This document shows, in pieces, positions 608 to 62,123 of a stretch of 64,000 nt of DNA. Position numbers and translations under genes: made by a program. The notes beneath the pieces were generated by a model. That model ran no database searches and was not told where the DNA came from. It worked only from the letters and a program-made list of their open reading frames with translations. Origin of the DNA: Octopus vulgaris (lineage: Eukaryota); the NCBI GenBank assembly GCA_951406725.2, contig OX597823.1:96844001-96908000 (forward strand), given 5' to 3'. Within the stretch, counting starts at the first letter, position 1. Each line of letters opens with the position of its first letter.

Positions 608-652
608 CCATGCTGATGATTTCTAAAAGGAATGAAATAGTGCTTTACATGG
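608..652 (+). ncRNA. Minimal type I hammerhead ribozyme motif (Penelope remnant)
   Basis: CCATG-CTGATGA-T TTC taaaag GAA T-GAAA-TAGTGCTT-TA^-CATGG. Stem I is 5 bp, the core is intact and stem III is decayed. Confidence 0.6.
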
Positions 653-733
653 TTGGCACTGACTAGAAATTTTAAGAACTTTATGATAAAAAACAGAAAA
701 TGTGTATTTTTTGTGCATCTTTTTCTTTATCCC

Positions 734-1190
734 TTAACCCTATCACACCATGTTCCTGATTTACCAGGATTAGCATAAATTTAATCTCTACTGGATTCCC
801 AGCAAAGTGCTAATGGATAACATATGCAAATTAAGAAGATAAAATACTAAAAATAGACAACTGGTCATGATGCAGCTTTGTAGTCATGTGACGTGTTTAT
901 GATTCGTTGTTAATGGTGTCCCCCCCCCATGGCTGTTGTTTACTTTTGTTTTTAATTTAATAAAAAGAAAACAATTTTGCCACGAAACAACTGTGTAATG
1001 AATTCAGCATTTTGTCTTGTAAATGAGTAAAGCCTAAACTCTTTGCATTTGAGGAAATTATTGATGATATTTACTCTTTAGATGAAGAGTTTACATTTAT
1101 GGTGGCAATGAGAGTGATTCAGACAATCAAACTTTTGAAAGTGAAGAAGAAAATAGCGATTCTAGTGAACAAATATGGTGGTTGAGGAAG
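734..1190 (+). mobile_element. Possible piggyBac-like 5' remnant
   Basis: TTAA|CCCT at 734 and a degenerate acidic reading (EEIIDDIYSLDEE...ESDSDNQTFESEEENSDSSE) at ~1050-1170, like a piggyBac transposase N-terminus. No right end found. Confidence 0.3.
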
Positions 1191-1904
1191 AGACCTATTA
1201 TTGTTATTCTCCTGAATTTATTTGTGATTCTGTCTGCTTGTTTGCCTGCAATCATTACTTTTGAGCTGTATATGCTACTATTTATTTATTTTTTTTTGCT
1301 CAGGAGCCCAGTTGGAGAGTAAAGTTAGATTTAGGGTCCCAGGTCTGAGAGTCAGTTTCTAACTTCTTATCCATCTAGATACTGTGAAGAGATGATTACG
1401 TTCCTTGTATTAACTGTTCACTAGAGAAGACCTCATGCTTGATGTTTCAGTGTCTAAATGAAATATCTAAACAAGGATTGTACCCTACATCTTGAACTTT
1501 AATTATTTGGTACTTAATAACACCTCTCCATGGTGTTTTTTCTCAGTGTATGATGCTTAGACATCCACCCCATAAGGGAGGTTGTTGGAGTTGAATATAT
1601 CTTACATGACAAGCAAATTCTGCAGAATAGCTGTATGTGATCTCTTTGTTAATATGGCTACAAGAGCTAAGATACCACACATTCTTGCTTCTTCTTCATA
1701 ATCCAGTATTTTTATACCTCATTAAGAATCCTTTTGTTTTGTTTCTGCTTTTTTTGTTTATTTTTATTAGGTATTTAGTTTTGGGTAATTTTGGTTTTAA
1801 TTTTCACTTTGGATCACTACAACATGAACACCACAACTTCCCAAAACCTTTACTCCCAAAATTCTCAGGCAATATTCTTAGTGTTTCCTTTCCATAATTA
1901 AGCC

Positions 1905-1948
<44 letters not shown>

Positions 1949-3046
1949 TGTGTGTGTGTGTGTTAGACTAAGATGAATTACTTTTATCTAACAGCACATA
2001 TTGAGAGGAAGTGTGTGAGTAACATACTCTTTTTATAAAGCCAGGCTTCGTTAAGTGCTTTTAATTGCAAGACTGGATATTGAAGATATATTTTTGGCCT
2101 TTAGCATTAACCTTTCTCTAATGATTATAGAACAATAAAGACTTGGTTGGTAGGAGACTGGACTTCCAGCTGAGAAGTCAGTGGTTTGTATCCTCGTGGG
2201 CCTTGTGTTGTGTCACTCACTAAAACATTTAGCTGTCAACAGCTAAGTCTACCTACCTCCATGTAAGTTAAAGGTACTGAAACAAGTACCCAAGATATGT
2301 TGTTCATTTATTCATTATCATCATCATCATCATCATCGTCATTCATCATCACCATCATTAACATCACCATCATCAATAACATCTTTTTAACTTCCATGCT
2401 TTCACGTGGGTCACATGTGTGTTTGAGGATACATGTGTTTGTGTGTGTGTGTGTGTGTGGTTAAGAAGTTTGGTTCCCAATCTCGTGGTTTCTGGTTCAG
2501 TCCCACTATGTAGTACCTTGGGCAAGTGTCTTTTACTACAGTTCTGGGCCAACCAAAGCCTTGTGAGTGGATTTGGTAGATAGAAGCTGAAAGAAGCAAA
2601 TCATTATGTACGTCATCATCATCATCATCATTTAGTTGTCCATGCTGGCATGGGTTGGACAGTTTGGCCAAGGCTGGCAATCTGGAAGGCCACACCAGAC
2701 TCCAATCTGATTTGGCATGGTTTCTACTGCTGGATGCACTTCCTAATGCCAACCACTCCGAAAGTGTAATGGATGTTTTTATGTGCCACCAGCACAGGTG
2801 CTATTTATGTGACACCAGTATCTGCTACGACTGTGATTTTACTTGGCTCAATGGGTCTTCTTTTCAGGCACAACATAATGCCAACGGTCTCTGTCATTGG
2901 AATCTTATATGTATACCATTCTGCCTAAATAATGGATCTACAAATGCAATATTCCTGCACATCTCACATCTATTTTCATTCCTCCTCTTCACTCCCTATT
3001 TCATATCTTATCCAAATTAACTATTGCTTAACTATTTTCTCGCACC

Positions 3047-3094
3047 GTCTCCGATGAAGGGATATAAAAAATATCCCAGAAACAGCTGTAAGAC
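3047..3094 (+). ncRNA. Minimal hammerhead ribozyme motif (U4C variant)
   Basis: GTCT-CCGATGA-A-GGGATAT aaaaa ATATCCC-A-GAAA-CAGCTG-TA^-AGAC. Stem II is 7 bp and the stem III loop is palindromic. Followed by an AT-rich tail running into (TA)n. Confidence 0.75.
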
Positions 3095-3151
3095 CTATTT
3101 ATAAATGTTCTAAAATCTTCACAGCCTTGATTTTTTATCTTGTTCTGAAAA

Positions 3152-3189
<38 letters not shown>

Positions 3190-4344
3190 CATACAAGCAC
3201 ACACACACACGCACACACACACACACACACACATACACATATATGTGTTACTTGATGACTCTGTCAGTGCAGGTGCCACTTAAAAAGCATCCAGCGCACA
3301 CTGTAAAGTGGTTGGCAATTGAAAGGGCATACAGCTGTAAAAATCTTGCCAAAACAGCCATAGAAGTCTTGTGCAGGCTTCTGCCTGGCCAGCCCCTGTG
3401 AAACCATCCCACCCATGCCAGCATGGAAGGTGAGCATTAAACAATGATGATGATGTAAAGAGCTTCAAATAGTTTCATGCTGTAGAAATACAATGATTTG
3501 GTAGATTCATACAATACATTGTTAGTATCTATAATGGAACGGTAAACACACACACACACACACATTTTCACATTATAAGAATTTTATAAACTTTCAAGAA
3601 AATTTGAAATAATATGTAAATATTGTGTTGCAAGGCCTTTTGGGATGGAAAGACTTTCTCAAGGTGTCACATAATGGGATTGAACCCAAAGTGATGTGAG
3701 CAAGAAGCAAACTTCTTAACCAAGCAGGAACCGTATTGTGAACAGTATGGAATAAAAGTGAAGTTCTTGAGAAACTAATACTTCACCAAAGTTCTGCTTC
3801 CTTATTGCAGACCTTTCGTTTCATGTATGTTACTAATTAGCCAGCAAAGAACTTGAACATCACAGAATCATGTTTCTCATTTCCCTTATAAATTTGAGAG
3901 TGTGGTTATAGGTGAAAACGCTTTCTGAAGAACTACGAATGGAAATGTCTCTTGAAAGGAGAAATAGGTCGTTCTTGAATCATACAATCTGTTTCCTGTA
4001 AATAATGTGTGTGTGTGTATGTGTGTGTGTGTGTGTGTATGTGTGTGTGTGTATGTGTGTGCGTGTGTGTGTGTATGTGTGTGCGTGTGTGTGTGTGTGA
4101 TTATGTGGTAAGGTTTCAACAAGTAGATCAGCTAAGAGAGTAAAGATAATGTTGTGATAAAAACCACAAATCTTGTCAAATTACCCAGGGTTTTCTGGCT
4201 GAAATTATAATTTATTTCACTATTTTTCAAACTGAAAATAAGACCATGTTGTCTTTTGAGCAGATGATATTTAAACAAGAGATGTTAGTAACGAAGAAGA
4301 CAAGAAGAAAAATACAAGGGAGATAATCAATAATTTCATGTCAA

Positions 4345-4388
<44 letters not shown>

Positions 4389-7125: not shown

Positions 7126-7288
7126 AAATATATATATGCGTATATATATATACACATATATGTATAGGCATATGTATGTATGTATATATATATATATGTA
7201 TGTGTGTATATATATATGTATGTATATGTATGTATGTATATATATATGTGTGTGTGTGTATATATACATATTTGTATGTATATATATA

Positions 7289-7369
<81 letters not shown>

Positions 7370-7510: not shown

Positions 7511-7514
<4 letters not shown>

Positions 7515-14639: not shown

Positions 14640-14770
14640 TGTACTAATCGGTGCTCCTAAAGATAATTATGACCAGTGTAAAAACTCAGGCTTTAGCAAG
14701 ACAGGTGTCATCTTTTCCTGTTCATCAACTACTGATGACTCCTGCTCAAAATTCTGTGTCCATAATTTAG
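14640..14770 (+). CDS. Integrin alpha subunit, internal exon A (first FG-GAP blade)
   Basis: T-rich tract and AG at 14638-39, GTAAG at 14771. Translates VLIGAPKDNYDQCKNSGFSKTGVIFSCSSTTDDSCSKFCVHNL, matching the integrin 'LLVGAP...GAVYxC...C' pattern. Phase 2 in, phase 1 out. Confidence 0.9.
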
Positions 14771-15511
14771 GTAAGAAAAGTTTTATATCATATATAAATA
14801 AATTTTTAAAAAAACATGAAAATATACAATGACATTAAAACTTAAACATATTAAATCAATGAGGCAGTGAGCTGGCACAATTGTTAGTACGCTGGACGAA
14901 ATGCTTAGCGGTATTTCGTCTGCTGCTGTGTTCTGAGTTCAAATTCTGCTGAGGTTGACCTTGCCTTTCATCCTTTCGGGTTTGATTAAATAAGTACCAG
15001 TTACGCACTGGGGTCAATATAATCGACTTAATCCATTTGTCTGTCCTTGTTTGTCCTCTCTCTGTGTTTAGCCCCTTGTGGGTAGTAAAGAAATACATAT
15101 TAAATCATTGTATCTTACATTTAAACAGAGTTACGCCTTTCAGAGGGAGATGCTCTTCAGAGGAAAATGAGAAATGTAGATATAGTACTTGTTGAGGTTA
15201 TCTCTACAGTTATTCTATAGAAATTAGATGGGTGCTGGCAGACTCATTTACATACCAGGTGAAACGCTTAGCAGTATTTCATCTGTCTTTACATTCAAAG
15301 TTCAAATTCTGCTGGGGTCATCTTTGACATTCATCCTTTCAGAGTCAATAAAATAATTACCAGTTGATGTAATTGATTTATTGGGGTTGATGTAATTGAT
15401 TTATTCCCTTCTCTGAAATTGCTGGCAGATGAAGGGGTAGAAACTCTTGAAGTATGGCATGTATGCCTATTACCCTTTTTTTCATCATCAATCTCATTGT
15501 TTGTTTACCAG

Positions 15512-16171: not shown

Positions 16172-16225
16172 TAATGGGTGCTGATGAAGTGGGAGGACCC
16201 CAAAATATGGCATATACACCTATTA
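16172..16225 (+). ncRNA. Hammerhead ribozyme motif with G12>A
   Basis: TAATGGGTG-CTGATGA-A-GTGGG agga CCCC-AAAA-TATG G CATA-TA^-CACCTATTA. Stem I is 9 bp. GAAA reads AAAA. A more decayed copy lies at 15424-15467. Confidence 0.7.
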
Positions 16226-20102: not shown

Positions 20103-21206
20103 GTACGTATGTATGAATGTATGTATGTACATCTCGTACCCCCACCACCATTCTTATACCCTGTGCATCATTTCCTTACTTTCTGATTTATCTTTGGGTT
20201 GCTGCTTGTCACCCGAATTCTTTTTGAGCCTCTTCCATCATTCTCACCTGTCTACTTCCACACCCTGGCACCTTGTCAACTGCATCTTTGTCTTCTTTCC
20301 ACCTTCGGTTATCCTCTCTTACATAATGTGTGGTAGCCATGCATTTCCTCAGTAGCAAGACACCTGTGCTTATCCCTCTATCACGTAGACGTAGCCGCGA
20401 CCGATGCCGGAAGTCGCCGGGAGGCTGTCGCGAGAACCACGTGGTCGATACCGCAATGTGGTCCAATCCGTAAATTCGCGTAAAATTACAGTGCCACCGC
20501 CTTCCGTTCCCCGCATTCAACACCTGGCATTAACCCACCACACACACTCTCAAATGTACTCCTATTCAGTCAAGTAGGGTTTTCTCCTTTCGGTTTTCAT
20601 CTTTGTCTTGTAAGTTACTTGCCAACCTTACTAGAGCTGGTGTGAAGAAAAAAGGAGCACCCGGTACATACTGTAAGTTTGTTGGCATGGGCTTCTTTCA
20701 GTTTCCAACCAATAAATCCACTCACAATGCTTTGGTCAGCTCAGGACTATAGTAGAAGGCACTTGTCCATGGTACAGTGTGACTAAACCTGAAACCTATT
20801 TCTTTATTACCCACAAGGGGCTAAACACTGAGAGGACAAACAAGGACAGACATAGGTATTAAGTCGATTACATCAACCCCAGTGCATAACTGGTACTTAA
20901 TTTATCGACCTCGAAAGGATGAAAGGCAAAGTCGATCTCGGCGGAATTTGAACTCAGAACGTAACGGCAGATGGAATACGGTTAAGCATTTCGCCCGGCG
21001 CGCTAACATTTCTGCCAGCTCGCCGTCTTATAACCTGAAACCATGGGATTAGGAAGTGAACTACCCAACTGCCCAGCCATGTGTACGAACACATGTGCAC
21101 ATGCATGTGCATGCACTCACACACACACACATACACACATACACACACTATGATTCTATAATGGATATATATGTTTTATACAATACGATGTTCATTATCA
21201 TTACAG

Positions 21207-21295
21207 AATCCACTTTAGGTAGAGACATTCAGAATGTAAGCAATGCCTGGCTTGGAGTGAATATAGACATCAATCCACGGAAGGAAGAGTTTGTG
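21207..21295 (+). CDS. Integrin alpha exon B
   Basis: ttacAG acceptor, GTAAG donor. (E)STLGRDIQNVSNAWLGVNIDINPRKEEFV contains the 'WLGV' blade-2 motif. Phase 1 in, phase 0 out, compatible with both neighbours. Confidence 0.9.
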
Positions 21296-26530: not shown

Positions 26531-27659
26531 CCAATACAAACACACTTGGCCTGCTGGAGAGAGTAGCTAAACCATCCTCAACTCCCACTCCACAATCATA
26601 GAATAAAAAAGAATACAATACACACCATCGTTCTGGGTGCATTGTGTCTGAGAAGAGAAAAAGATGCATGGTCAAGGCTGGAATGCCTTTCATTATAGAG
26701 CTGCTGTTTTAATCAGAGTTGAACTGGAGCTAAACAACAACGTATGTTAGAATATTTGAGTTTCAATCATTTTGAGATCATCCATTTGAGGAAAAAGGTC
26801 ATTAGAATAAGTGACACTAGCTAATAACCTTTAATTACTTTCTTACCACCTTTAATAATTAGCTTTAGACATCAGCAAAAAATCTACCACAATCCTAGTT
26901 CTTTTTCTTTTGAATATTTTAATTACAGAAAATTTTTTACCTTCAATTTTTCAATGTTTGTGTGGGATGGGAGGAAGGTCATGGTTTATTTGTCAAAGCA
27001 ATACGTTTTACTGTTGAATGCTTTTGTACTTAATGCTAACAAATCAGCCATGACATAGACCTCCCCCACAACACTTTTATTCAGGTTAGGGTTATGAATC
27101 TTGCTTAAGGGTACAACACAATTATAATAGTGGTAAATAGTCCAGGATTTACAGCCATCAAGTTCAAACTCCAACAGAGGAAGGAGAAGAGCCAACATGA
27201 ACTTTCATCCTTGGCTGTCCTTAAGATATTAAGCATGTACCAAAGATACAATGCAAACAGTTTACTTGGCGAGTCCACCTTGTCTCTTATCATAGTTCTT
27301 TTGAGATTCAGTACTTTTGTTTTAATTATTTTTGAAACTAAGGAAGAATTTAATCAAATATCTTTGTCTTTATTAAGCTAGTGTTTAGAACATAAGTTGT
27401 ATTATTTTGATGAAAGGTTTAAATTTAGATCACTATAAAATGAGGAGTTTCTATCATAGAAACAGGGGCAGTTTCTATGATTTGGGTGTGTTAGTATCAA
27501 CAGGGTTTAAAGATTATCCCAGATTGTGCTGTCAAGTGAGACAAGGTGTAACCAATAATGGCCAAAACCTATCTGTTACCTAAATACAGCACCCACTTCT
27601 TCCTTTTGTGGCTGTAACTATTTTCCTAAATGTGATATTTTACCTTCATTCTATTGTAG

Positions 27660-27830
27660 ACATGTGGACATCGCTGGAAATCCGTTTACGTTGATGATCA
27701 GTATGTTAAAACATTTTACATGAAAGGGTTCTGTGTGGTCACTACGTTAAATGGATCAAAAAGCCGCAGACTTCTTCTCATGAAATCAGACAATATTACA
27801 GCTGGTGGAACATCAGTGAAATATACCCAG
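27660..27830 (+). CDS. Integrin alpha exon C
   Basis: ttgtAG acceptor, CAG|GTAAGT donor, 57 codons: TCGHRWKSVYVDDQYVKTFYMKGFCVVTTLNGSKSRRLLLMKSDNITAGGTSVKYTQ. TCGHRW is alpha4/alpha9-like. Confidence 0.92.
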
Positions 27831-33724: not shown

Positions 33725-33986
33725 ATTGTCATATCAATGTATTTGATCTTCATATTTAGACTTGATGTGAACGCAACCTAATTACACACACATACACATA
33801 TGCATTATATATATACGTAACTAAATAGGGTTAAGCAACAAGTTGCTTAGCCACATACCGAAAATTTAGAAATAGCAGTCAAAGACTGCTTATTCCTATT
33901 TTCTACAAATATAGCTCCACATATAACATATACCTGTAACATATGCAAAAAGAAGGAAAAATAACAAAAACAAACAGTCTTCGGTT

Positions 33987-34047
33987 AGTTGTGGATGCAT
34001 TTCTGGGTTAGAATTATAAAGAACTCATTCCCATCTTCAGCACAACT
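33987..34047 (-). ncRNA. Minimal type I hammerhead ribozyme with intact core, in a Penelope pLTR remnant (~33815-34075)
   Basis: Reverse complement AGTTGTG-CTGAAGA-TGGG...CCCA-GAAA-TGCA-TC^-CACAACT. Perfect 7-bp stem I, 4-bp stem II and palindromic A-TGCA-T stem III. Confidence 0.85.
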
Positions 34048-34134
34048 TTCCATTAAGTTATAGATTTGCAAATGCTATATATATATACACACATTTACGT
34101 ATATGTACATGTATGTATATATATATATATATAT

Positions 34135-35968
34135 ACGCCAACTCTGTAATGGGATACTTAGAAGAACAACTCTACCAAGAGGTGGAGGTAAACTATGGCA
34201 CTGGATTTAGAAAGTATATTGAAAAGGCATGGAAGAGATACCTAGACGACTGTTTCATAATCTGGACAGAATCTCTAAATACTCTGGAAGAGTTCAATAT
34301 CCTCCTGAACAACCTACACCCATCTCTCAAATTTACAAAGGAGATGAGTAGTACCAAATTACCATTCCTGGATATAATGGTAATTAAAAAAGACACCACC
34401 ATCACCACAGATATATACTATAAACACACAGACACACATCAATACCTAAATTTTAAGTCGTGCCATCCACCACATACAAAACGTAACATCCCATACTGCC
34501 TAGCCAGAAGAATTTGTACTATTGTAGAAGATGCAAATATCAGGAACAAACGCCTAATAGAACTAAGAGAATTTTTGCTCAAACAAAAATACCCATCTCT
34601 ACTTATAGAAAATGGCATACAGCGGGCTATAAAAATACCTATACAACAACTTAGGACAACCCAAGGAAGAGGAAAACAAGAACAAGTCATACCATTCATA
34701 GTGACACACAACCCATGTCACCAGAATATCTTCAACATTGCCAAAGCAAACCTACCAATCATTGCCCAAAGTAATGAATTAAAAGACATAATCAAGGATC
34801 GAGCTATGGTGCTTAGTAAAAGACAGCCTAAAAACTTGAAAACATTACTAACAAAGGCAAAATTTGACCTCAGCAACAAAGACCAAACATTCACGGTATC
34901 TAAATGCAATGATAGCCGATGTGGCACATGCCAATTCATACATACCGGTCAATATATAAACACAAAAACCGGGAAAATATTCACAAACGCGAATATGAAC
35001 TGCAAAAGCAGAAATTTAATTTACTGCATCAAATGCCCAAATTGTGAAGAAATATATGTAGGTCAGACGGGAAACGCACTATTAGAACGCTCACGTGTAC
35101 ACCGGCAACAGATTAGAGACCCAGAGGTCCGTCAGATACCTTTGAGTAACCACCTAGCAACATGTGGTCGGAAAATATATATAATATTTCCATTCTACAA
35201 ATTACACAGCCCAAGTGAAATCGAGAGGAAAATCAGAGAAAAGAATTTTATTGATAAATTCGAACCCAAGCTAAATAAGCAATAATAATAATACTTAGAG
35301 GTATTACTTCCACTGCTACGACCATGACCACTAACAACAACAACAATACTAAAGGTGATCAAGACGAAGATAGCAGGAAAATTATCTTATTTAGGGTTAA
35401 AAGTTCTATTGCCACCACCATCACCACTAGCAACAATAATTAAGGTGCTGACAATGATGATGATGACAATTGAAATATAAAAATATAAAAATCTCTGACA
35501 AAGGATATTTACAACATTTCTAAAAATAACCCAACAATTGCTGCTTCGGCCAGGGTCAAGATACAGGACTCTTGACCTGTCCAACAAAGCGTGATGCCTA
35601 AACCAATCAGCTCAACCAACCAATCAGCTTAAGTAATTGAGTGATACTACACACTGATTGGTCAGAATACAGTTTGCAAAACCTAGCACTCTGGAGCCTA
35701 CCCAGCTGTATTTATAGCACAGAATCACTCATCTTGCTACAGTCAAAAATTGTGAAGCATGACTGTCAACACTACTACATGAACCCGAAGATTGCAGAAT
35801 TCAATGCATGAAAGTACTAGTTCAATCAGAATGAATATTTAACATTCTACTATTTCATTTTATTTTATTCAATTATAATATATTATCTTATAATATATCA
35901 TTATAAGATTGTAAATAAAACGTGAAAATCAGACAAGGTTGGAATTCTTTTTATTAATATATTCTTCT
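34135..35968 (+). mobile_element. 5'-truncated Penelope-like element (Neptune-type) with RT C-terminus and GIY-YIG endonuclease
   Basis: Open ORF to 35285: YAN..MG, WKRYLDD, LPFLDI, YLNFKSCHP, Cys linker CNDSRCGTC and NLIYCIKCPNCEEIYVGQT. 3' UTR carries a hammerhead. Flanked by TA-rich repeats. Confidence 0.95.
35780..35824 (+). ncRNA. Minimal hammerhead motif (U4C variant) in Penelope 3' pLTR
   Basis: TGAAC-CCGAAGA-T-TGCA gaattcaa TGCA-T-GAAA-GTAC-TA^-GTTCA, with palindromic A-GTAC-T stem III. Confidence 0.8.
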
Positions 35969-35986
35969 ATACACAATCACACACAC

Positions 35987-36080
<94 letters not shown>

Positions 36081-36654
36081 GTATATATATGTATACATAT
36101 ATATGCGTGTGTGTCTGTGTGTACATACAGGTGTGGCTGTATGGTAAGATGTTTGCTTCACATTCACATAGTTCAGGGTTCAGTCCCACTGCTTGGCACA
36201 TTAGGCAAGTGTCTTCTACCATAGCCTTGGGCCAATCAAAGATGTGTGAGTGGATTTGGTAGATAGAAACTGATAAAATAAGTACCTGACTTAAAAATAA
36301 AAGTACTGGGATCAATGCATTCAACTGAAATTTTTCATGGTGATGCCCCAGCATGGCCACAGCCAAATAGCTGATATAGGTAAAATGTGAAATACATGTG
36401 TGTACAGAAGTTAATATGTATAGGATGTCTTCTTCACAGTTTCTTCTGAGCAAATTTAACCTCCCAGAGACTGTAGTTGATGGTACATATTCATGGTGCC
36501 CTATAGTGGAATGGAACATGGAACCATGTGATTGCAAATCAAACTTCTTAACCGCTTGGCCATGGCAGGGTAAAAAAGCAAAAGTTTATTTCATATCTCG
36601 TTGAAAGAAATAATATTCTTTGGTATTTATTTATTTATTTACTTTTACCTGCAG

Positions 36655-36703
36655 GATGGTCAGAAGATTATTGTCGGTGTTCTTGGGAGAGATAAATATC
36701 CAG
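36655..36703 (+). CDS. Integrin alpha exon D
   Basis: ctgcAG acceptor, CAG|GTAAGA donor. DGQKIIVGVLGRDKYP(G) aligns to the 'xxxLIxGAPGxxxWxG' blade. Phase 0 in, phase 1 out. Confidence 0.85.
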
Positions 36704-39700
36704 GTAAGAGTCTTTCTTCTTCAGACAATATAAACCACTTCCATTTTCAGTTTAAATTAAAGGCTTCTATTAGCAACAGGAATTTTAGTTAATTAATGAA
36801 AATAAAAAACAAAAAAAATTGGATGGAAAATACCAAAAAGGCACCAGTGGGGCTGTGTGGTAAGAAGTTTGCTTCCAATCCACATGGTTCTGGGTTCTGT
36901 TCCATTGTTTGGTACCTTGAGAAAGTGTCTTCTGCTATAACCACAGGCCAATCAAAACCTTGTGAGTAGATTCAACAAATGGAAACTGAAAGAAGCCTGT
37001 TGTGTATAGCTATACCCCGTTCAAAATTTGCATTAGTTTTTGTATGAAACAAAACAAAAAAAAAATAATAAAAGGAAGGGATTGGGGGGTGCTTGTTTGT
37101 AGTTTGTAGAGGAAATGTTAAACATGGCTGGAAAAAACATGGCTGGAATGAAAACCTGAACATCTAAAAGACTTTGCCTCTGGTCATTGCTAAATCTCTA
37201 TCCCTCTTCATTGTTAAAACTGAAGAAGCTAGAAAAGACCGATCGTATTTCAGTCTAATTGTCATTTTAAATGACTGAGGCTTTCCTTTCTCTGTCTCTA
37301 TCGCTCCACTTCTTTTCTCAATGATTAAGAGAGTAAAGGTGTGTAGCTCAGTGGTTAGGGGTATTCCGGCCATGATCATAAAGTCATGAGCACGATTCCC
37401 AGTGGCACGCTGTGTTCTTGAGCAAGGCACTCTACTTCACTTTGCTGCAATCCACTCAACTGACGAAAATGAGTTGTAGATGTAATTCAATGGAGCCAGC
37501 CTTGTCACATTCTGTGTGAAGCTGAATCTCCTTGAGAACTACGTTAATGGTATGCATGTCTGCGAGCTGGAAGAAATGTTAGCACACCGGGCGAAATGCT
37601 TAGCAGTATTTCATCTGTCGTTACGTTCCAAGTTCAAATTCCGCCGAGATCGACTTTGGCTTTCATCCTTTCGGGGTTGATAAATTAAGTACCAGTTATG
37701 TATTGGGGTCGATATAATCGACTTAATCCGTTCGTCTGTCCTTGTTTGACCTCTCTGTGTTTAGCCCCTTGTGGGTAGTAAAGAAATAGGTATACATGTC
37801 TGTGGATTACTCAGCCACTTGCGAGTTAATTTTACAAGCAGACTGTTCCCTCGATCAGGTAAACAGGAACCTCATCGTCATAACCAATGGAGAGCCATTC
37901 TTTAAAAAGAGTGAAAGAAAAGGAAATGTTTCATATTGTAAGGCAAAAATGTCAAGTGTTCAGTATAAGCAGTGAAAGCCAAGACGAAATAATTGCTATT
38001 CTGTCGTGTATTCACCCTCGACTCATGCTCAGTTTCATAACAACAGCCTGTGCATTGGTGTTTATCTGGGGACTTGGCTTCCATATCTGTGAGACCCACA
38101 AATTCCACTGTTAGGACCTGATTAACACCCATAGTGATCCTAACAACTAAAAAGATTTTCCTGCCCCATCGATCAACATCAATGGAATTTGTAGTTTGTG
38201 GCACATAAGAGAACCATACGAATGTCTCCATAGCCAGCACCGCATCAACTGGCCTCCGTGCTGGTGGCATGTAAAAAGCACCATCCGATCGTGGCCGTGC
38301 CAGCCTCGCCTGGCCTCCATGCCGGTGGCACGTAAAAAGCACCATCCGAGCGTGGCTGTTCGCCAGCCTCGTCTGGCACCTGTGTCGGTGGCACATAAAA
38401 AGCACCCACTACACTCACGGAGTGGTTGGCATTAAGAGGGGCATCCAGCTGTAGAAACACCGCCAGATCTGACTGGCCTGGTGCAGCCTTCGGGCTTCAC
38501 AGACCCCAGTTGAACCGTCCAACCCATGCTAGCATGGAAAGCGGACGTTAAACGTTGATGATGATGATGATGATGATGATGTATAGGATCTTTTTTCATT
38601 TTCTTCCAACTGCTTGAAGGTTTACCTTGCTCCAATCCACTCAGCTGGCCAAAATGAGTTGTAGCTATAATTCAAAGGGACCAGCTTTGTCACATTCTGT
38701 GTGAGGCTAAATGCCCCTGAGAACTTTGTTAATGGTATGCATGTCTGTGGAGTACTCAGCCACTTGCACGTTAATTTTATCCTTGTGTGGTAATGAAAAG
38801 TGAAAGTGACATCCTGTATTTGCTGTAGTTATTTGTCTTTGTACTTATGTACTTTTGTTTGGATCTGTGTATCTACTTTTCTTTCAATGTATGTATCAGT
38901 GTACTCTGAAAATACTGGTAAATATTTAAAAACTCAATATTTAAAAGCAAAAAAAGGAGAGCCACCTTCCTTTCAGTCACTACTCACTGTCTCTCTCACT
39001 TTTTCCCTTTCTCTCCCACTTCCTTTCTGTCCATCTCTCTCGCTTTTAATTTAACAACGTGTGTATGTATCTATGTATCTACTTTTCTTTCGATCTATGC
39101 ATCAGACTACTCTGAAAATACTGATAAACATTTAAAACCCCAAAAAGGAATACCACTCACTACTCGCTCACTCTCTGTCTTTCTCTCTCACTTCCTCTCT
39201 GCCCCTCCCCACACTCCCACTTTGCCACTCACTTCAACTATACCTCCTCTGCTTAAGACCTTTTATTTCTCTTTTTCTTTGTACCTCGCCCTTCAACCTT
39301 TTTAGCTCTTCCTTTGGAGTAAGTGTGACACACACCACAGGTACATACATATCAGAGATGCTGCAACTCATTTTTATAACAGAGGGAATTGGAGCAATGT
39401 GAAATAAAGTTTCTTGCTCAAGAACACAACACACAGCCTGGTCTGGGAATTGAGCTCACTACCTCATGATTGGGAGACTGATGCTCTAACCACTGAGCCA
39501 TGCACCTTCATGCATACACACACACATACACACACACACACATATATATTCTTTTATTCTTTTATTTGTTTTAGTCATTTCACAGCAGCCATGCTGGAGC
39601 ACTGCCTTTAGTCGAAGAAATCAACTCCAGGACTTATTCTTTGTAAGACTAGTACTTACTCTATCGGTCTCTTTTGCTGAACTGCTAAGTTACAGAGAGG

Positions 39701-46830: not shown

Positions 46831-48683
46831 TGTGTTGTATTAGATGAAAATATTTCACTACTGCCCTTGCCACTTCCCCTCCCCAAGCTTTTGGTCATAC
46901 TGTAACATCTCTTATCCTTCATTTGGGTGCTAGGCATGTCTTGGCAAGTGATTGTAATAAACATGCAGATTAAAAGTAAACAACAACAACAATAATAATA
47001 ATGTTGTTTTTTTTTCTTTATTACTTACTGAGCAACTTAATCCTTCCTTCCATCAGCTCCTTACAACACTTTTGGATGGCACGGACCTCTCTCTCTATAT
47101 ATATGTCAAACAGTAGGCCTACTGACTTTCATTAGTTGATTTTTGCTCCTGTTACTGTCTCATAGTTCCTTATAGCCAAGCCAATTATCACAGTGTCCTT
47201 GGTCTCCATCCACTTTGTGACCCCATTAATCTTCTCACCACTGCTGAATGGACTCAAAGAGAAACAATTGTTGCGAAATGAAACAAAAGCAAATGAACAA
47301 CATATTGTTTAAGTTAATTAGATGCCAAACAATGTAATTAGAAATTGTATTATTATTACTGATTAGATTTAAAATAAAAGAATTTTTAAACAGTCAATAT
47401 ATATTCTTAAATGAATCATACAGCCACATGCACTGTTTAAACAGAAACTAAAATTTAATACTGTAGTCTATCTACGGTATCTTATTTTATTTTTTGATGC
47501 CTGCATATCTCATCTTGTTTAAATGTAAATGCATACGGCCATTTTTCTGTTCATAGCTATTAGGTTAACCAACAATTAGTTAAATGTAAGACAAATGATA
47601 GATGGGTCTGTGTGTGGGATATTTCTTTTATTTATTCTGTAGAGATTTTTACGCCAATGTAAAATATATGTTCATACATTTGTATAACACATGTTATTTC
47701 TTGTTTATCAGATTTCTTTTTTCTTTACCATGTTACAAGGTTGTTTCCTGTTTTGCTCATACAGCAAATAATGAAGAAATAAAACAGTTATTTGTTTATG
47801 AATTCGGTTACTGTCTTACTTTTCCATCCAGAGGGCTGCGGCCATACTGGGGCAGTGACAGTTATAATAATAATAATAATGATTTCAAATTTGGTACAGG
47901 GCCAGCAATTCTGGGAGAGGGGTTAAGTAGATTCCATGCCCCCCCTCCCCAACACACACACAGTGCTCAACTGGTACTTAATCTATCAATTCCAAAAGAA
48001 TGAAAAGCAAAGCTGACCCCCATGAAATTTAAACTCAGAACATAAAGACAAATGAAATGCTACTGAGCATTTTGCCCACAGTGCTAACGATTCTGCCATT
48101 ATGATGACAATGACGCCGCCGACGACGACTGATTGGAAGTGTTATCATGTACATTGTTTTGTCTTGGTATAAAAGATGGGCTACAGCAAATATTCTGCTC
48201 AATACCACAGATTTGCTTGTCAGTTGTTTGACCGTAACCAGTTGAGCGTGTCCCTTATGTGCATCTCTGATCACAAGCAGAAGTAGCTGAGGAGCAAAAT
48301 AGCCATGTCTTGAGAGGAATTCTTTGGGATTTAGTTAATTCACCTCTGGAGACATGGGTGTTTTGTTCAACATCCTTAAATAACCCTTATTCAGGGACCT
48401 TTTGAGTGGAATGGGTTACTTGACCAGAAGAAAAATCTAACTGGGCCCCACCTGTAAGGTCATGTGCTGTTTATCTTGAAATGAGATCACCACGTCGCAC
48501 ACATATGGTTGTGATGCATGTGCCTAGTGTACCCTTATCCGACGGGTAGTCATGATGGGTATACCCCAGTGTCACATTGATGGCATGCACTGCTCTCTCC
48601 CTCAATGATGATGATGATGATGACGATGATGATGTTGATGAGGAGTTAACTAATTAAGCATTCATTTTTTTTTTTCTATCTAG

Positions 48684-48770
48684 GTGGAATAATTTTGTTT
48701 CCCAATGTAGGACCAAACCCTGATGGAAAGCCTATGTTACTGTCGTCTAACATTGATAACAATTATGCTG
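48684..48770 (+). CDS. Integrin alpha exon E
   Basis: Poly-T and ctAG acceptor, G|GTAAGT donor. (G)GIILFPNVGPNPDGKPMLLSSNIDNNYA(G) ends at the 'SYLG|Y' equivalent. Phase 1 in and out. Confidence 0.87.
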
Positions 48771-48842
48771 GTAAGTCTACTTGTTTTCCTGTTTCACTTT
48801 CATTCATTTCACTCTTCTTTTCAAGAGGACAATTTTCTTAAT

Positions 48843-49188
48843 TACAGAGATGTACTTGCATAGCAAGTGACCTGATCTGAGATCGTGTGCTGAAACAAAA
48901 ATAATTGCAGCGTGGAAAGGTGTTTATAAGCAATTTAAGAAATACACAAAAATCGTTAGATTCACTCCAACATTTAAATTTAATTTGCCAAAATATTTTC
49001 AGCGCTTTGAAACCACGACCTATTCACTGACAAAATTTTGTGCTGCACAGAATTTTGTCAGTGAATAGGTCGTGGTTTTAAATTGACGGAAATATTTTGG
49101 CAAATTAAATTTAAATGTTGAAGTGAATCTAACGATTTTTGTGTATTTCTTAAATTGTTTATAAACACCTTCCATGTGGCAATTATTT
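48843..49188. mobile_element. Short Penelope-like insertion forming a long inverted repeat, with a 12-bp TSD
   Basis: AATTTTCTTAAT at 48831-48842 and 49189-49200. Arms 48899-49043 and 49045-49188. Each arm has a hammerhead-like layout. Confidence 0.75.
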
Positions 49189-52129
49189 AATTTTCTTAAT
49201 ATATTCTATATAATTCTATTGGTGCAAGCATGGCTGTGTGGTTTAGTAGTTTGCTTCCCAATCATATGGTTTCAGGTTCATGCCCACTGTATGACACCTC
49301 AGGCAAATGTCTTCTGCTATTGCCCCTGGCTGACCAAAACCTTGTGAGCAGATTTGACAGATGGAATACAAACTCATCTACCCATACTGCTAGTACCTCT
49401 GCTACCCACCTTGTACCTTAAGATCCCACCTGAACTTGCAGCTTCTACTGATCATTGCAGGCTGCAAGGCAACCTCACTAGTGCTGGTAGCGCAGAAAAA
49501 GTACTCAATACAAGCTGTGAAGTGGTTGGCATTAGAAAGTGTATCCAGCCATAGAAACCATGCCAAAGCAAACACTGGAACATGATGCATTCATGGGACT
49601 TGTTGGATTCAGTCAATCCTGTCAAATCATCCAACCCATGCCAGTATGGATCATGGATGTTAAAAATGAGGATGACAACAATGCTGATGACAATGATGGT
49701 GATGGTGGTGGTGATCATCATCATCATCATGGTCATCATCATCATGTCTTTTTTGTGTATTGTTGTTCTTGTTCTTGTTGTTTAGGAACAAATCAGTCTT
49801 GATCAATCTGACTTAAGGTCAAAGGTATCTCTTTTTATTCACTTTATTCAAAATCATAGTGTATCTAAGATTCCATTGTTCTTTTTGCAGTTATTTTAGA
49901 ATTAATAAAGTATGTTTGAGAAAGGTTTAGCTGTTGTCTTTAGCAAGCCAAATGACCACAGAAGGGCATTCAAGAGCGTTCATATATACATGGTTGTAGT
50001 GGCTGCTGTTGCTGTTGTTGTAATAGTTGTTGTTATTTAACCCCGTGTCAGAAGCCCTGAATGAGCAACCTATGATGAAGTGTAATCTAGCCATGACCAT
50101 CCTGTCTGCATTTTTTTCAGCAATTTTAAACATCATGTGACACTGACACCAATGGGAAAGCCTCTTAATGGCCATTTAGATTACTAGAAACAGCAGGCTG
50201 AAAAATAGACTAGCAGATGGTACATTCATGGCTGGATTACTCATAGTTACATCATCATCATCATCATCATCACCATTTAACGCCTGTTTTCTATACTGGC
50301 ATGGTTGGATGGTTTGACAGGAGGTGGTGATCTAGAAAGCTGCACCAGCCTCCAGTTGTCTGTTTTGGTATGGTTTCTATGGCTGGATGCCCTTCCTAAT
50401 GCCAACCACTTTACAGAGCGTAGTGGGGGAATTTTACAGAGTGCCAGCATGGGTGCCTTTTATGTGGCACTGGAACAGGTGCTTCCTTCCATGACACTAG
50501 CATAGATGCCTTTTATGGGGTGCCAACGTGAGCGCTCTGTATGTAGTGCTGGCACATATACTTTTTACATAGGTTCTTATTTCAATTAATTGTGAAAATA
50601 ATGAAGAATTTAATTGAATAACTATCGTTAAGGTCGTGTTTGTAAGAAATTAATATGAAATTTTGATGGAAGATTCCAATTCAAATTCCTTTAAAACAGG
50701 AAGTTTGCATCATAGAATCATAGAATCAGACGGGTTGGCATCAAAAATGTTGCAGTCTGGTTGTTTAGGCTTTTAATGTTGATGTATTTTTGTTGTGCTT
50801 CTTGTGTTTCAAGTGTTTTGAACAATGGAATGCATAATAAAACTAGCACATATGGAAATAGCTGCCCTGACATTAGAACTGCTATTTATCTGTATATTTT
50901 AATTAACACACATTCACACACATACATACATAATTACTTTAAAGAAGGTAGTTGTGTTAAGCCGGAACAATGTGAGAATGTACAAATTAAACAACAAAAT
51001 GAAAAGAAAACAGAACAAAGTTGCAGTTTTATCTTGTATTTCTATATTTCGGGATGAAGAGCCCTTCTTCAGGACATTTAGAAAAGCAGAGGCTGGAAAA
51101 AATTTGTTGTTCAGATGTGTGTGGGTGGAGGAGAGGGACAAAGGAGGAAGGTGATATGCGCAGGCTGTTGTTGCATACATACACATGCATATATATACAT
51201 CTGGTACTCTGTTAGTTATGACAGTGAGGGTTCCAGTTTATCTGATTGACAGAACAGCCTGCTCGGGAAATTAACATGCAAATGGCTGAACATTCCACAG
51301 ACAAATGTACTATTAACGTAGTTCTCAGAGAGATTCAGTGTAACACAAACTGTGACAAGGCTGGCCTCTTTGAAATACAGGTACTACTCATTTTTGCCAG
51401 CTGAGTGGACCGGAGCAACGTGAAATAAAGTGTCTTACTCAGGGACACAATGCATCGCCAGGAATTGAACTCACGACCTTATGATCATGAGTCGAATTCC
51501 TCTAACCACTAAGCCACGCATCTTCACTGCTGGCACACATATATATATATTGACATACATGTACACACACACACACAAATTCCACCAAAGTCAATTCTAT
51601 TTATCACCCCTCCAGGGGTACCAGTCACATACTGGTATCAACTTGCCCCCTCTTCTCAAGATTGTTATCCTTGGATCTAAATCAGAAACTGTTATCTATA
51701 ATTAATAGTTTGTGGGTGCAGATGTGGCTGTGTGGTGAAAGTTTGCTGTATAATCATATGGTTCCAGGTTCAGTCCCACCACATGGCACCTTGGGCACAT
51801 GTCTTCTGCTATAGCCAAGGGTCGACCAAAGCCTTGTGGAAGGATTTTGTAAACGGAAACTGAAAGAAATCTGTATTGTTGTGTGTGTGTATGTGTTGGT
51901 TTGATTATATCCCCATAACACTGTGGTTCAGAAAAAGAGGTCTTAGAATAAGTACTAAGCTCTAAAAACAAGTAGTAGGGTTGATTCATTTGACTAAAAC
52001 CCTTCCAGGTGGTGCTCCAGCATGGCTGCAGTCCTGTACTAAAACAAGTGGAAGATCTCAAAGATAGTAGCCATATACTTACTACATGCTCTCATTGCAC
52101 AACAAAATTCAATTCTATGTTCTTGTGTT

Positions 52130-55681: not shown

Positions 55682-55708
55682 CAATCGTTTCTTTTTGTTT
55701 GTTTTTAG

Positions 55709-55791
55709 GTTATGCTGTAGCTTCTGGAAAATTCTTTAATAATAAATATGAATACTCTGTCATGGGTGTACCCCGAGATGGCAGTGGAGCT
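55709..55791 (+). CDS. Integrin alpha exon F
   Basis: tttttAG acceptor, GTAAGT donor. (G)YAVASGKFFNNKYEYSVMGVPRDGSGA is an FG-GAP blade ('GYSVxxGxF...GAPR'). Confidence 0.92.
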
Positions 55792-55981
55792 GTAAGTTGC
55801 TTATTTTGTGGCATTCATCCCTCTCTTTTCTCCTGCTTGTGTGGTAAGAAATTTCTCTCTCAACCATAGTGTCAGGTCTAATCCCAGTACATGGGCAAAT
55901 GTCTTCTACTATAGCCCAGGGCCTACTAAAGCCTTGTGAATGCATTTGATAGATGCAAACCAAAAGAAGTCTGCAGATTGT

Positions 55982-58386: not shown

Positions 58387-61300
58387 ATATATACTCTTTT
58401 ACTCTTTTACTTGTTTCAGTCATTTGACTGCGGCCATGCTGGAGCACCACCTTTAGTTGAGTAAATCGACCCCAGGACTTATTCTTTGTAAACCTAGTAC
58501 TTATTCTATCGGTCGCTTCTGCCGAACTGCTAAGTTACGGGGATATGAACACACCAGCATTGGTTGGCAAGCGATGTTGGGGGGACAAACACAGATACAA
58601 ACATATATATACATATACACGACAGGCTTCTTTCAGTTTCCATCTACCAAATCCACTCACAAGGCTTTGGTCGGCCCAAGGCTATAGTAGAAGACACTTG
58701 CACAAAGTGCCACGCAGTGGGACTGAACCCGGAATCATGTGGTTGGCAAGCAAGCTACTTACCACACAGCCACTCCTGCGCCTAACTTCGTAAACTCCAA
58801 TCACTCTTCCATTCCACCCTTACCGACGCCACTACCCCAACTCCTCCACCACCCTTCTCCCCTCCCGATAGGCTCCATCCACCCACACCTAACCCCACTG
58901 CCCCTCCCTACAACCCCTTCTCCCCTCCCGATAGGCTCCATCCACCTACACCTAACCCTACTGCCCCGCCCAACCACCCCCCACACACCTCCCCAATCCC
59001 TCCCCCTCAGACCTCCACGAGACCTACCACCCCTCCTACTTCTATTCCACCCACCCCTTCTCCACTTCCGTCTGTTGTTACCATTCCCCCCGATCTTCCC
59101 CTCTCTGCAGCTGAACGCTCCGTCCTTGGTAGGGGTCTGCGTTTCATCCCCCTCACTCCATCCTGTAAGGAATTCCAGACGCGAGTTGATGTCCACAGCT
59201 TTGTACGCCGTGTCCGGTTGGGTGCGCATTACCACGACTCGCCACCCACACCCAACGAAGAGGACTGCTTCACTGGCCTGGGCCGCCGACCATCCCCGTG
59301 GACGCCTGCCCCTGGCCAGATCCTAGCAGTGGATCTTTTCGCGGGCGCTTGTCAGCGTGCATTGGAGCGGTTCAACTTCTCCAGGCGCCAACGCCGCCTC
59401 AACATCTCCCCGGCTGAGCTCTTGGCTCTTCGTTCCCTCCAACGGCGCGCTGACATTATCATCAAACCGGCTGACAAGGGTGGAGCTGTAGTGGTGTGGC
59501 GCGCGGACCTCTATAGGGCCGAGGCTTTCCGCCAACTCAATGACACCTCCTTCTATTCCCCTCTGCCCTCTAACCCCACACGTAGCTACCAACAGACGGT
59601 ATCCTCTACTGTCCACGACCTCATCTCGTCCTCCCGTCTCCCCTGCACCGCATCCAACCTAATTGTGCGAACCCCACGTACCCCCACCATTTACTTCCTC
59701 CCCAAAATCCACAAACCCAACAACCCTGGCCGCCCCATCGTCTCCGCCTGTAACTGCCCCACGGAGCTCATCTCTAAATACCTCGACCGTGTTCTTGCCC
59801 CTCTAGTGGCATCTCTTCCCTCCCACATCCACGATACCAACCATGCTCTCCGGCTTTTCAACTCTTTCTCCTTTCCTCCCGGCTCCTCCAAAATCCTTTT
59901 TACTATGGACATCCAAAGCCTCTATACTGTTATCCCTCACCACGAAGGACTGCAGGCCCTTTGACACTTTCTTGACCTCCGCTCTAACCCTGTACCTGAC
60001 ACCTCCACACTCATTCGTCTGGCCGAACTTGTCCTTACTCTGAACTGCTTCTCGTTCGCGGGCGAGTTCTACCATCAGGTCTCGGGAGTGGCCATGGGAA
60101 CGCGAATGGGCCCCAACTATGCGAACCTGTTCGTTGGCTATGTTGAGGCCCAAATATTCTCTCATTTCACTGGTCCCACTCCTGAACTATATGGTCGTTA
60201 CATTGACGATATTATCGGTGCCACCTCACTCTTCCGCGAACATCTAGATTCCTTCCTCTCTTTCGTCCAATCTTTCCATCCAGCCCTCCACTTCACTTCC
60301 ACTATCTCCAACACCTCTGTCTCCTTCCTCGACATTTCGGTTAGCATTCTTCACTCCACTCTTACCACCTCCATTCACTACAAACACACAGACTCACACT
60401 CATACCTCAACTTCTCTTCCTCCCACCCAGAACACACCAAGCTTTCCATTCCCTATTCCCAATTCCTCCGTCTACGTAGGCTCTGTAGTGACGACCATGA
60501 CTTTGAGACTCAGTCTCAACGTATGGCTCACCACTTCACCCTACGTGGATACCCCCTCACCACTATCCACACCGCCCTTGCCAGAGCACGGTCCGTGGAC
60601 CGTGTATCTGCTCTCTCTCCCCGAACCCGCCCTGTAGTCTCCCGCCTCCCTTTTCCCCTCACTTACCACCCCACGACCCTACGTCTCCAACGCACCATTC
60701 TTCGAGCTTTCCGTCATCTCCAGTCCGACCCGTCCACTTCACACCTCTTCCCTAACCGACCCCTCCCCTCTTTCAAACGAGCCCACAACCTTCGAGACCT
60801 TTTGGTCCATAGCTCCTTCCCTGACCCTACCTCCCAACCCGGCTCGTTCCCCTGCTCCCGCCCACGTTGCCGCACTTGCCCTTACCTCTCCAACACCACC
60901 CGCCTCACTAGCACCCACCATCGACCCTATCCCATCATCCACTCCTTCACCTGCACCTCCAGCAATATTATCTATTGCATCTCTTGCTCTCTCTGCAATT
61001 CCTTGTACATCGGACAAACGGGACGCCGCTTGGCTGACCGGTTCGCGGAACACCTTCGTGACATCCACCTTGCGAACGACACACCGGTCTCACGCCATTT
61101 CCGCTCCACCGGCCACTCCTTGCAACACCTATCTGTGTTCGGTTTGTCCTTACACAGAGGCCATCCGGATTCCCGTTTGCGCCGTGAACAGGAATTAATC
61201 TTCTCTCTTCGCTCTTATACGCCATTTGGTCTCAACTCTCCCCCCCCCTCCTCATCTAACCTCCTCTCCCCCCTCCTCATCTAACCCCCTCTCCCCCCTC

Positions 61301-61605
61301 CTCACCTATCCTTTCCCCCCCGACCCCTACTTCTTCAGTCCTTCATCCTTTCACCCCTACTCCCCTTCCCTTCTTCCCTCTTTCTCCCTCCCTCCTTCCC
61401 TCTTCCCCTTCCCTCTGCTCCCTCACTCCCTCTCTCCCCTTCTCTCTCCCCCTCTCCCTCTTTCCTCCTTCCTCCTCCCCTTCCTTCTCCCCCTCCTCTC
61501 TCTCCCCCCTCTCCTTCCCCTCCCCTTCTCTCCCCCTCTTCTCCCCCTCCCCCTCTTCTCCTCACTACACCACACGACTTTACACATCACATCATATATG
61601 ATGTG

Positions 61606-61925
61606 CCATACTAATACATACACCAACTAATACATACTAATACGTACTAATACATACTAATACATACACCAACCCTATACATACACACGTCCAGACCCCT
61701 CATACGCACTTATACTCTCTCATACACACACACACACACTTATACATACTAATACGTACTAATACATACTAATACATACTAATACATACACCAACCCCAT
61801 ACATACACACGTCCAGACCAATCCTACGCACTAATACTCTCTCATACACACACACACACCCTTATACATACTAATACATACACCAACCCTATACATACAC
61901 ACGTCCAGACCCTTCCTACGCACTA
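61606..61925 (+). repeat. Hierarchical tandem repeat in Penelope 3' UTR
   Basis: CATACTAATA 10-mers within three ~100-120-bp units ending CCAACCCTATACATACACACGTCCAGACC. Confidence 0.85.
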
Positions 61926-62085
61926 TTAGCTGGTCCTTCAACCCTATTATCTCCCCTTATTTCGCTCTCGCGTCTCATGTTTGATCTTTGACCTCTGGCC
62001 GAAATCAGATCGCCATGTTGATTCGTTAGCTACTGCACGCATTTTTTTTCTCTCCTTCTTTCTGTTTTTTTTTTCTCTCTGTGTA

Positions 62086-62123
62086 TCTTTCTGTTGAAGA
62101 GCGTAGGCTCGAAACATTAAAGA
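62086..62123 (+). ncRNA. Degenerate minimal hammerhead motif in Penelope pLTR
   Basis: TCTTT-CTGTTGA-A-GAGC gtag GCTC-GAAAC-ATT^-AAAGA. A6>U in the core and a non-optimal cleavage triplet. Confidence 0.65.

Follow-up and report, generated by a model that had tools for sequence, protein, structure and literature searches.

The 64,000-nucleotide stretch of the Octopus vulgaris genome considered here (GenBank assembly GCA_951406725.2, contig OX597823.1, positions 96,844,001 to 96,908,000 of the forward strand; hereafter the window, from whose first letter positions are counted) lies within a gene for an integrin alpha chain. Its introns carry ten short motifs of the hammerhead ribozyme type, and two Penelope-like elements (PLEs), here called PLE1 and PLE2. 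A first-pass annotation had viewed the locus as one seeded by several Penelope families with self-cleaving RNA modules. It is very probable that the motifs are minimal type I hammerheads borne by high-copy repeats, two of which are PLE terminal repeats and six of which are likely to be, and that they are likely to be inert passengers in the integrin introns.

The integrin-alpha gene and its intronic hammerheads

An open reading frame (ORF) at 14641 matches the integrin-alpha proteins of Octopus sinensis and O. bimaculoides, and seven exons of the gene lie on the plus strand of the window: 14641..14769, in the FG-GAP region (approximate tblastn bounds), 21205..21294, 27659..27827 (tblastn) and, with approximate bounds, 36646..36705, 48677..48772, 55702..55794 and 63610..63681. 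The gene extends over 216 kb, from exon 1 at G000:C10:96726556, 117 kb upstream, to a last exon some 35 kb past the window, so that every motif is intronic. A GT..AG joint between 21294 and 27659 is found in contigs from three of four probable RNA runs, whose RNA nature is guessed and whose contigs cannot show RNA ends; two of these joints lie within records 3.3 and 3.9 kb long, about what the whole integrin mRNA would measure. The motifs named after positions 608, 3047, 15424, 16172, 35780 and 62086 are sense to the gene, as is one arm of a hairpin near 49 kb. The first 11 residues of the O. bimaculoides integrin model match 2642-2674, inside a SINE (short interspersed nuclear element)-like repeat; this is probably a false first exon of that model, the true exon 1 being 117 kb upstream.

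Taking the canonical core as C3-U4-G5-A6-N7-G8-A9, G12-A13-A14-A15.1 and U16.1-H17, an exact core is present in motifs 608 and 33987, and in 3047 and 35780 with U4C, a change seen in 8 of 10 seeds of the 3047 family and in all 20 of the 35780 family. Motif 608 (607..653, plus strand, integrin intron 1) reads CUGAUGA/GAAA/UA, with a predicted cut after 647 and one U-U mismatch in stem III, and is part of an old repeat family, the repeat spanning about 599-737. Motif 3047 (3047-3094, plus; CCGAUGA, stem III strand ACAGCUGU, predicted cut after 3090) lies in a solo repeat of about 290 bp (2896..3190, plus) that resembles a pseudo-long terminal repeat (pLTR) and ends at (TA)n. A second solo pLTR-like repeat of about 290 bp (33792..34081, minus), antisense to integrin and situated between microsatellites, holds motif 33987 (33987-34047, minus; CUGAAGA, stem III strand AUGCAU, predicted cut between 33994 and 33993). 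Motif 35780 (35780..35824, plus; CCGAAGA, stem III strand AGUACU, predicted cut after 35819) belongs to the 3' pLTR of PLE1 and motif 62086 (62086..62123, plus; predicted site after 62118) to that of PLE2; the latter deviates from the canonical core by A6U (CUGUUGA; family CUGUNGA), and in the window copy CA replaces the palindromic CG. Motif 51043 (51041..51074, minus, antisense to integrin) has the full core CUGAAGA/GAAA/UA; beside the core, its stem I spans no more than about 2 bp, as in its family.

The canonical core is lacking in the remaining window copies. Motifs 15424 (15424..15467, plus; U4 to A, A15.1 to G) and 16172 (16172..16225, plus; G12 to A where the family has GAAA, 9-bp stem I) are decayed members of one old family, about 75% identical, and a fold-back pair of a short repeat at 48841..49212 carries one hammerhead per arm (48969-49043 minus, 49045-49119 plus), both arms reading GUGAAUA and the family GUGAACA, a G3-C8 core. 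Around the cores, the 62086 family has an extra nucleotide between A9 and G10.1-C11.1, motifs 3047, 33987 and 51043 carry an additional base to either side of the first G-C pair, and stem II of 608 and 35780 opens with U-U. The 49 kb hairpin was considered as a microRNA and rejected (Rfam 71 bits against a cut-off of 140). A second long hairpin, at 53161-53312, also has Rfam microRNA-like matches below cut-off, and descriptor scans find no hammerhead there.

The first-pass annotation had located all ten sites, and the cut sites of 608, 3047, 33987 and 35780, correctly, and was right to place them within an integrin pre-mRNA. The type I layout that it gave them is likewise borne out, although the CUGANGA core that it held to be common reads CCGANGA in 3047 and 35780 and CUGUUGA in 62086. 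Motif 51043, described as decayed, matches its own family with a full core, whereas 16172, not listed among the decayed ones, is itself decayed and of one family with 15424. The 49 kb arms are indeed worn copies, carrying U8, of a family whose core is itself unusual.

That these motifs are real is indicated by their frequency and by a feature that was not searched for. A type I descriptor (core C[U/C]GANGA, GAAA and UH; stem I of at least 4 bp, stem II of at least 3 bp) has four matches in the window (C3 at 613 plus, 3051 plus, 34040 minus and 35785 plus), whereas local dinucleotide shuffles give 0.1 +/- 0.37 with a maximum of 2 and none of 40 reaches 4, so that the density is not matched by the shuffled sequence that the first-pass annotation had named as a control. 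With one core mismatch permitted, the window has 6 matches against 1.0 in shuffles, and seeds from all hammerhead families met in the analysis recover exactly the ten motifs in the window and no others. Over 784 kb (the window, the gene flanks and evenly picked stretches of the genome), 22 of 31 real matches have a stem III insert that is wholly self-complementary, compared with 9 of 95 from 25 shuffles, which is independent evidence because the descriptor left this insert unconstrained. The window hammerheads are genuine minimal type I motifs and pieces of very abundant repeats.

Penelope-like elements and repeat families

Two of the motifs end recognisable PLEs. PLE1 (34134..35962, plus) is a 5'-truncated element between (TA)n tracts, with a reverse transcriptase (RT) thumb, a C-x4-C-x2-C linker and a GIY-YIG domain that passes the Pfam cut-off; its ORF ends at 35285. 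Its last 821 bp (window 35050-35870) are 100% identical in all 40 copies scored of 1450 candidates, and the element is very young. Full copies occur in inverted pairs and in tandem arrays, where the hammerhead recurs at 4271-bp intervals, and sequence of the PLE1 family turns up in probable RNA runs, one contig being 3885 nt long. PLE2 (58781..62246, plus), also 5'-truncated and ending at (TA)n, has an RT region with one in-frame stop at 59962-59964, a C-x4-C-x2-C linker, a GIY-YIG-like C-terminus and a long low-complexity 3' region. Pfam returns no match for its two ORF pieces, and tblastn aligns it to PLE1 with E 3e-33 and 30% identity. Its tandem unit is 4477 bp, with the same hammerhead in each copy, and among 62086-family loci found with an ORF-free motif, 5 of 13 others hold the PLE2 ORF within 1.5 kb. 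The corresponding link for the 35780 family, 12 of 12, arises by construction because the query contained 235 nt of ORF. Motifs 35780 and 62086 thus both sit in the pLTR of elements with RT and GIY-YIG regions. The linker, the (TA)n flanks and the tandem or inverted copies agree with Neptune-type PLEs, for which a C-terminal GIY-YIG, a CX2-5CxxC linker, (TA)n targets and 5'-truncated copies in tandem or inverted arrangement are described (Craig et al., 2021, PMC8557442).

Full-length PLE1 (L177, G000:C1:27840500-27850499; L179 and L180) has two overlapping ORFs of 454 and 775 codons, stop to stop. The RT-endonuclease frame is at -1 relative to the first ORF, and the 90 nt shared by the two contain U-UUU-UUU-A, which makes this a candidate for programmed frameshifting. 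No report of a ribosomal frameshift in GIY-YIG PLEs was found in the literature searched; the two-ORF layout is nonetheless not counted as new, because a figure legend (Fig. 1) in Craig et al. (2021, PMC8557442) mentions that ORF1 of Neptune-type PLEs can be separated by a frameshift. The PLE1 insertion in the integrin intron may be polymorphic among animals. Two further placements were ruled out: motif 33987 is not an inverted 5' copy of the neighbouring PLE1, which is of a different family, and the 3047 family is not the pLTR of PLE2, which has its own A6U motif.

At the level of sequence, each window motif belongs to a repeat family dispersed throughout the genome. Only 40 candidates were scored per family, and the candidate totals are lower bounds: at least 2407 for 3047 (the best at 93-96%), 3054 for the 49 kb repeat, 1450 for 35780 with its ORF end, 1039 for the 608 region (partly an adjacent repeat), 961 for 62086, 424 for 33987, 413 for 51043 and 323 for 16172. 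The six solo families (608, 3047, 15424/16172, 33987, 49 kb and 51043) break off abruptly on the 5' side, have inverted copies set back to back and are flanked by microsatellites, an architecture that fits PLE ends and from which we infer that they are such ends. The origin in several Penelope families proposed by the first-pass annotation is therefore borne out by the elements that carry 35780 and 62086, and for the other six is suggested by architecture. At 30 loci from a Pfam GIY-YIG search, a same-strand hammerhead lies downstream in 6 (all with a U3-A8 core), upstream in none and on the opposite strand in 3; three further loci show a worn U3-A8 motif by eye.

Other repeats were noted as well. 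Loci L140, L142, L143, L146, L151, L157 and L216 hold PLE families with a natural U3-A8 core behind GIY-YIG ORFs, and a related PLE family of 781 codons has many copies. The sole non-PLE GIY-YIG match, L150 (G000:C30:5221180), resembles the host SLX1 nuclease. Further hammerhead families occur at L022:203 and 762 (minus), L216:7050 and 8385, L108:1131 and L019:1301, and two of these form direct repeats 559 and 1335 bp apart, possibly retrozyme-like or non-autonomous units. In the integrin gene itself, L172:8893-9781 (intron 1) and L181:9789-9879 (a later intron) contain a family with a long stem II and inverted pairs.

Despite this abundance the locus is unremarkable. A broadened descriptor, which also admits A6U and swapped 3-8 pairs, gives 5 matches in the 64-kb window, 6 in 120 kb of the upstream intron, 4 in the 200 kb downstream and 16 in the 400 kb of 40 evenly picked 10-kb stretches (shuffles 0-2). 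Five window motifs stand against 2.6 expected per 64 kb (Poisson ~0.12), a density near genome background. This is the main correction to the first-pass annotation: its spacing of about one motif per 7 kb holds (ten motifs, one per 6.4 kb), but the seeding is not special to this place. Scaled to 2.8 Gb, 16 minus 1.4 matches per 400 kb correspond to roughly 100,000 intact motifs genome-wide, a figure to be read with the clustering of copies in mind. Other genomes are reported to hold 2,000-9,000 PLE hammerheads each (PMC4209133), and a section heading in PMC7229834 gives up to 120,000 for axolotl.

In most respects the finding is known PLE biology. The minimal hammerheads of metazoan PLEs described by Cervera and de la Pena (2014, PMC4209133) are likewise type I, with a stem I of 4-7 bp and a palindromic, reduced stem III, and fall into many unrelated families per genome, mostly solo with few in pLTRs, with inverted pairs and a U3-A8 variant. 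The differences lie in the octopus copy number and in the family-wide A6U and G3-C8 cores, which, like octopus, are not mentioned in the portion of that paper available. Non-LTR retrozymes (PMC7229834; bioRxiv 10.64898/2026.07.22.740005) are similarly type I hammerheads in abundant PLE-linked animal repeats, but they are described as short tandem arrays that give rise to circular RNA, whereas the window contains solo or inverted copies, with no short tandem units and no same-strand pair of intact same-family motifs.

Family-wide core variants

The only unusual part of the finding is that two families have departed throughout from the canonical core. A6U is the state of the whole 62086 family: an exact 30-mer with U6 occurs 14,429 times, and the same 30-mer with another base there, mostly C, 500 times. 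Flanking bases alone pick out 8,673 copies; in the first 100 of these, all from one chromosome arm, U6 is present in 93 and the remaining core positions in 93-100, while position 7 is A in 44, G in 21, U in 19 and C in 16. Since N7 varies and the other positions do not, A6U master lineages changed position 7 repeatedly and kept the rest, U6 included. The 'invariant' base is altered in no fewer than 14,000 identical motifs, while the free position 7 has changed at least three times. A sister clade of the 62086 family has the canonical A6, a different loop II and a stem I in which G-C replaces C-G, and locus L019 holds another A6U-type core, with a long stem III. The G3-C8 family has GUGAACA, stems I and II and the palindrome AAUAUU, and its 45-mer occurs exactly 488 times; the 49 kb arms in the window are predicted to be dead because they carry U8.

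Published mutants bear on what such cores might do. Mutants of the CUGA turn have low activity, rescued only by a C-G swap (PMC9901934), and the natural A6C is slow (PMC3088659), so A6U could be either a slow core under selection or a shape kept for some other reason. The G3-C8 pair has an engineered counterpart, the C3G/G8C double mutant of the Anolis Poseidon PAc hammerhead, which partly restores cleavage (Frangieh et al., 2024, PMC11167929); what is an engineered core there is the natural core of the octopus 49 kb family. PAc resembles the octopus motifs in being a PLE pLTR hammerhead, but PLE1 and PLE2 have the Neptune/Nematis-type Cys linker and the octopus case is one of sequence.

For C3G/G8C, the literature searched yielded engineered mutants only, and for A6U a single paper, which concerns twister. 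No paper on octopus or cephalopod hammerheads was found by title or abstract. Lunse, Weinberg and Breaker are said, by the title of their work, to treat small dimer-cleaving PLE hammerhead variants, the same RNA class and mechanism. Natural A6U or G3-C8 cores were not found in the literature searched, although that work and its supplements may hold them. It is possible, if somewhat less than an even bet, that A6U and G3-C8 are working natural cores.

Host transcript and competing explanations

The first-pass annotation suggested that motifs inside the integrin pre-mRNA might cut it or give rise to small linear or circular RNAs, and neither proposal is supported. In their flanking context, the monomers have a predicted A15.1-U16.1 pair probability of at most 0.001, and with +/-30-100 nt of flank included, 608 and 3047 are not even expected to form stem I (P<=0.07). 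The dimer cleavage through palindromic stem III that was also proposed finds partial agreement: palindromes recur across families, and homodimers of 3047 and 35780 are predicted to fold as double hammerheads, at -13.7 and -6.4 kcal/mol, respectively, relative to two monomers, but the palindrome is broken in the 608 and 62086 copies, the cofold is imperfect for 608 and 16172, and for 33987 and 62086 no double hammerhead appears at minimum energy. Partners are also wanting. Among five motifs, stem I between different sense families reaches no more than 3 contiguous base pairs, and no intact, compatible pair of motifs is present on the sense strand of the window. Just one sense pair of a single family lies close together, 15424/16172, in which the former has lost U4 and A15.1 and the latter G12. 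The window has no short tandem array. Across the 216-kb gene, 15 copies are sense and 9 antisense (intact, 7 and 4; p=0.31), with no sign of selection against sense copies, although at low power. Published behaviour points the same way: PLE hammerhead monomers are reported as inactive and dimer cleavage as low (PMC4209133), and the Anolis PLE hammerhead is described as cleaving only with protein, as dispensable for insertion in vitro and as lacking RNA sequencing ends at its site (PMC11167929).

These observations can be joined into a simple account. Every motif is part of a genome-wide family, and those at 35780 and 62086 stand behind an RT plus GIY-YIG gene and recur every 4.3-4.5 kb in tandem copies; the other families would be PLE ends, truncated on the 5' side or else non-autonomous, that inserted at (TA)n and are often accompanied by an inverted copy. 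Stem III is predicted to form only between two copies of one family, and because of this need cutting would take place in tandem transcripts of the element itself, where it would be slow and probably aided by the element's protein. A lone copy in a pre-mRNA, partnerless, would be spliced out with its intron and decay neutrally. The motifs are test material for the question of what PLE hammerheads do, and PLE1 in particular suits a cleavage and end-mapping test, since its many copies hardly differ and probable RNA runs contain it. The intronic hammerheads of RECK and C10orf118 (Perreault et al., 2011, PMC3088659) also lie in the sense strand of a host intron, but they are described as conserved across mammals and as self-cleaving during in vitro transcription, whereas the octopus motifs are multi-copy, decaying and predicted to be inactive alone. 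A domesticated state of that type does not fit the window motifs, given their hundreds to thousands of copies, neutral-looking decay and lack of a predicted monomer stem III.

Several results weigh against the passenger account. With decayed copies included, the window has 10 motifs against 4.8 expected, about twice background (Poisson p=0.025, although inverted pairs do not count as independent), and for canonical cores only the counts are 4 in 64 kb and 5 in 400 kb; yet the window had been selected on account of its motifs, and part of the seeds derive from it. The orientation comparison rests on 24 copies. A splice joint across 27828-36645, the intron that holds PLE1, is not seen in the contigs, and the animals behind the probable RNA runs may lack this young insertion. 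As regards Penelope origin, 24 of the 30 GIY-YIG loci have no downstream descriptor match. Within +/-1.5 kb of 10-44 loci per family, PLE ORFs are found at 0 of 14 loci for 608, 0 of 14 for 16172, 0 of 12 for 51043, 1 of 10 for 33987 (the PLE1 neighbour in the window itself), 2 of 12 for 3047 (PLE2, probably nested) and 1 of 44 for the 49 kb hairpin family (a weak PLE2 fragment). That nearly all loci lack an upstream ORF leaves some room for the six solo families to be protein-free elements, retrozyme-like or SINE-like and mobilised by PLE enzymes, instead of broken autonomous PLEs. Their short, fairly uniform lengths of about 200-290 bp point in that direction, as do the G3-C8 copies, in which, roughly 20-25 nt 5' of stem I, homology stops or the copy folds back; yet strong 5' truncation is described as usual for PLEs (PMC8557442), the loci number 10-44 per family and the window has no short tandem arrays. 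We regard this as a serious but less probable alternative, and one that would alter the label, not the verdict that the motifs are passengers.

The other alternatives concern what the motifs do. That the descriptor matches are chance hits to a short pattern can be dismissed with near certainty: shuffles yield about 3.8 matches per 784 kb, and an Rfam scan of the window contains no hammerhead among 142 matches at E<=5, but the curated Rfam models do not fit minimal forms, the window count and the stem III palindromes each refute chance, and the families differ by compensatory changes (stem I C-G versus G-C; U3-A8 and G3-C8 cores). It is rather unlikely, though worth keeping in view, that successful families retain the hammerhead as a folding or protein-binding element and not as a cutter, A6U being catalytically dead yet transposing. 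A6U is fixed in a young (93-99% identical) and very abundant family, the CUGA-turn mutants (PMC9901934) and natural A6C (PMC3088659) are weak or slow, hammerhead mutants are reported still to insert in vitro (PMC11167929), and all 30 listed G3-C8 loci hold a whole, uncut motif, as the search pattern by construction requires. However, constancy of at least 93% at the other core positions with a free N7, in the 100 copies, is the pattern of a catalytic core, and a stem III palindrome, of use only in dimer cleavage, is kept across families; activity of the A6U family would separate selection to cut slowly from selection for shape. Cutting of the integrin pre-mRNA by sense copies, in trans with transcripts of their own family or with PLE protein, so as to tune splicing or release small RNAs, is improbable. 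Four intact or near-intact cores are sense to integrin, the probable RNA runs contain sequence of the PLE1 family, a PLE hammerhead is reported to cleave with the aid of protein (PMC11167929) and Xenopus retrozymes are reported as under-represented in introns (bioRxiv 10.64898/2026.07.22.740005), but sense copies are not depleted here, no compatible cis partner exists, 15424/16172 lack needed core bases, 608 and 3047 are not expected to form stem I in native flank and no array could give a circle. One contig runs unbroken over 35596-35962, across the predicted cut after 35819, and any PLE1 copy could be its source. Equally hard to credit is the wider proposal that the roughly 100,000 dispersed hammerheads, many of them sense-intronic, are latent cut sites switched on in trans by PLE transcripts or protein, so that transposon activity would cleave host pre-mRNAs such as integrin, with A6U and G3-C8 as selected slow versions. 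If true, trans or protein-assisted cutting in host introns would be a new route from transposon to host RNA.

Other mobile elements are also present in the window. Non-LTR retrotransposon fragments with RVT_1 lie at 31973-32896 (plus), 55930-57657 (plus) and 44601-45992 (minus), one of them with a PHD-like finger, and the minus-strand fragment is one that we take to be CR1-like. A Transposase_1 fragment, a mariner-type partial DDE domain, is found at 10107-10532 (minus; E 1e-20).

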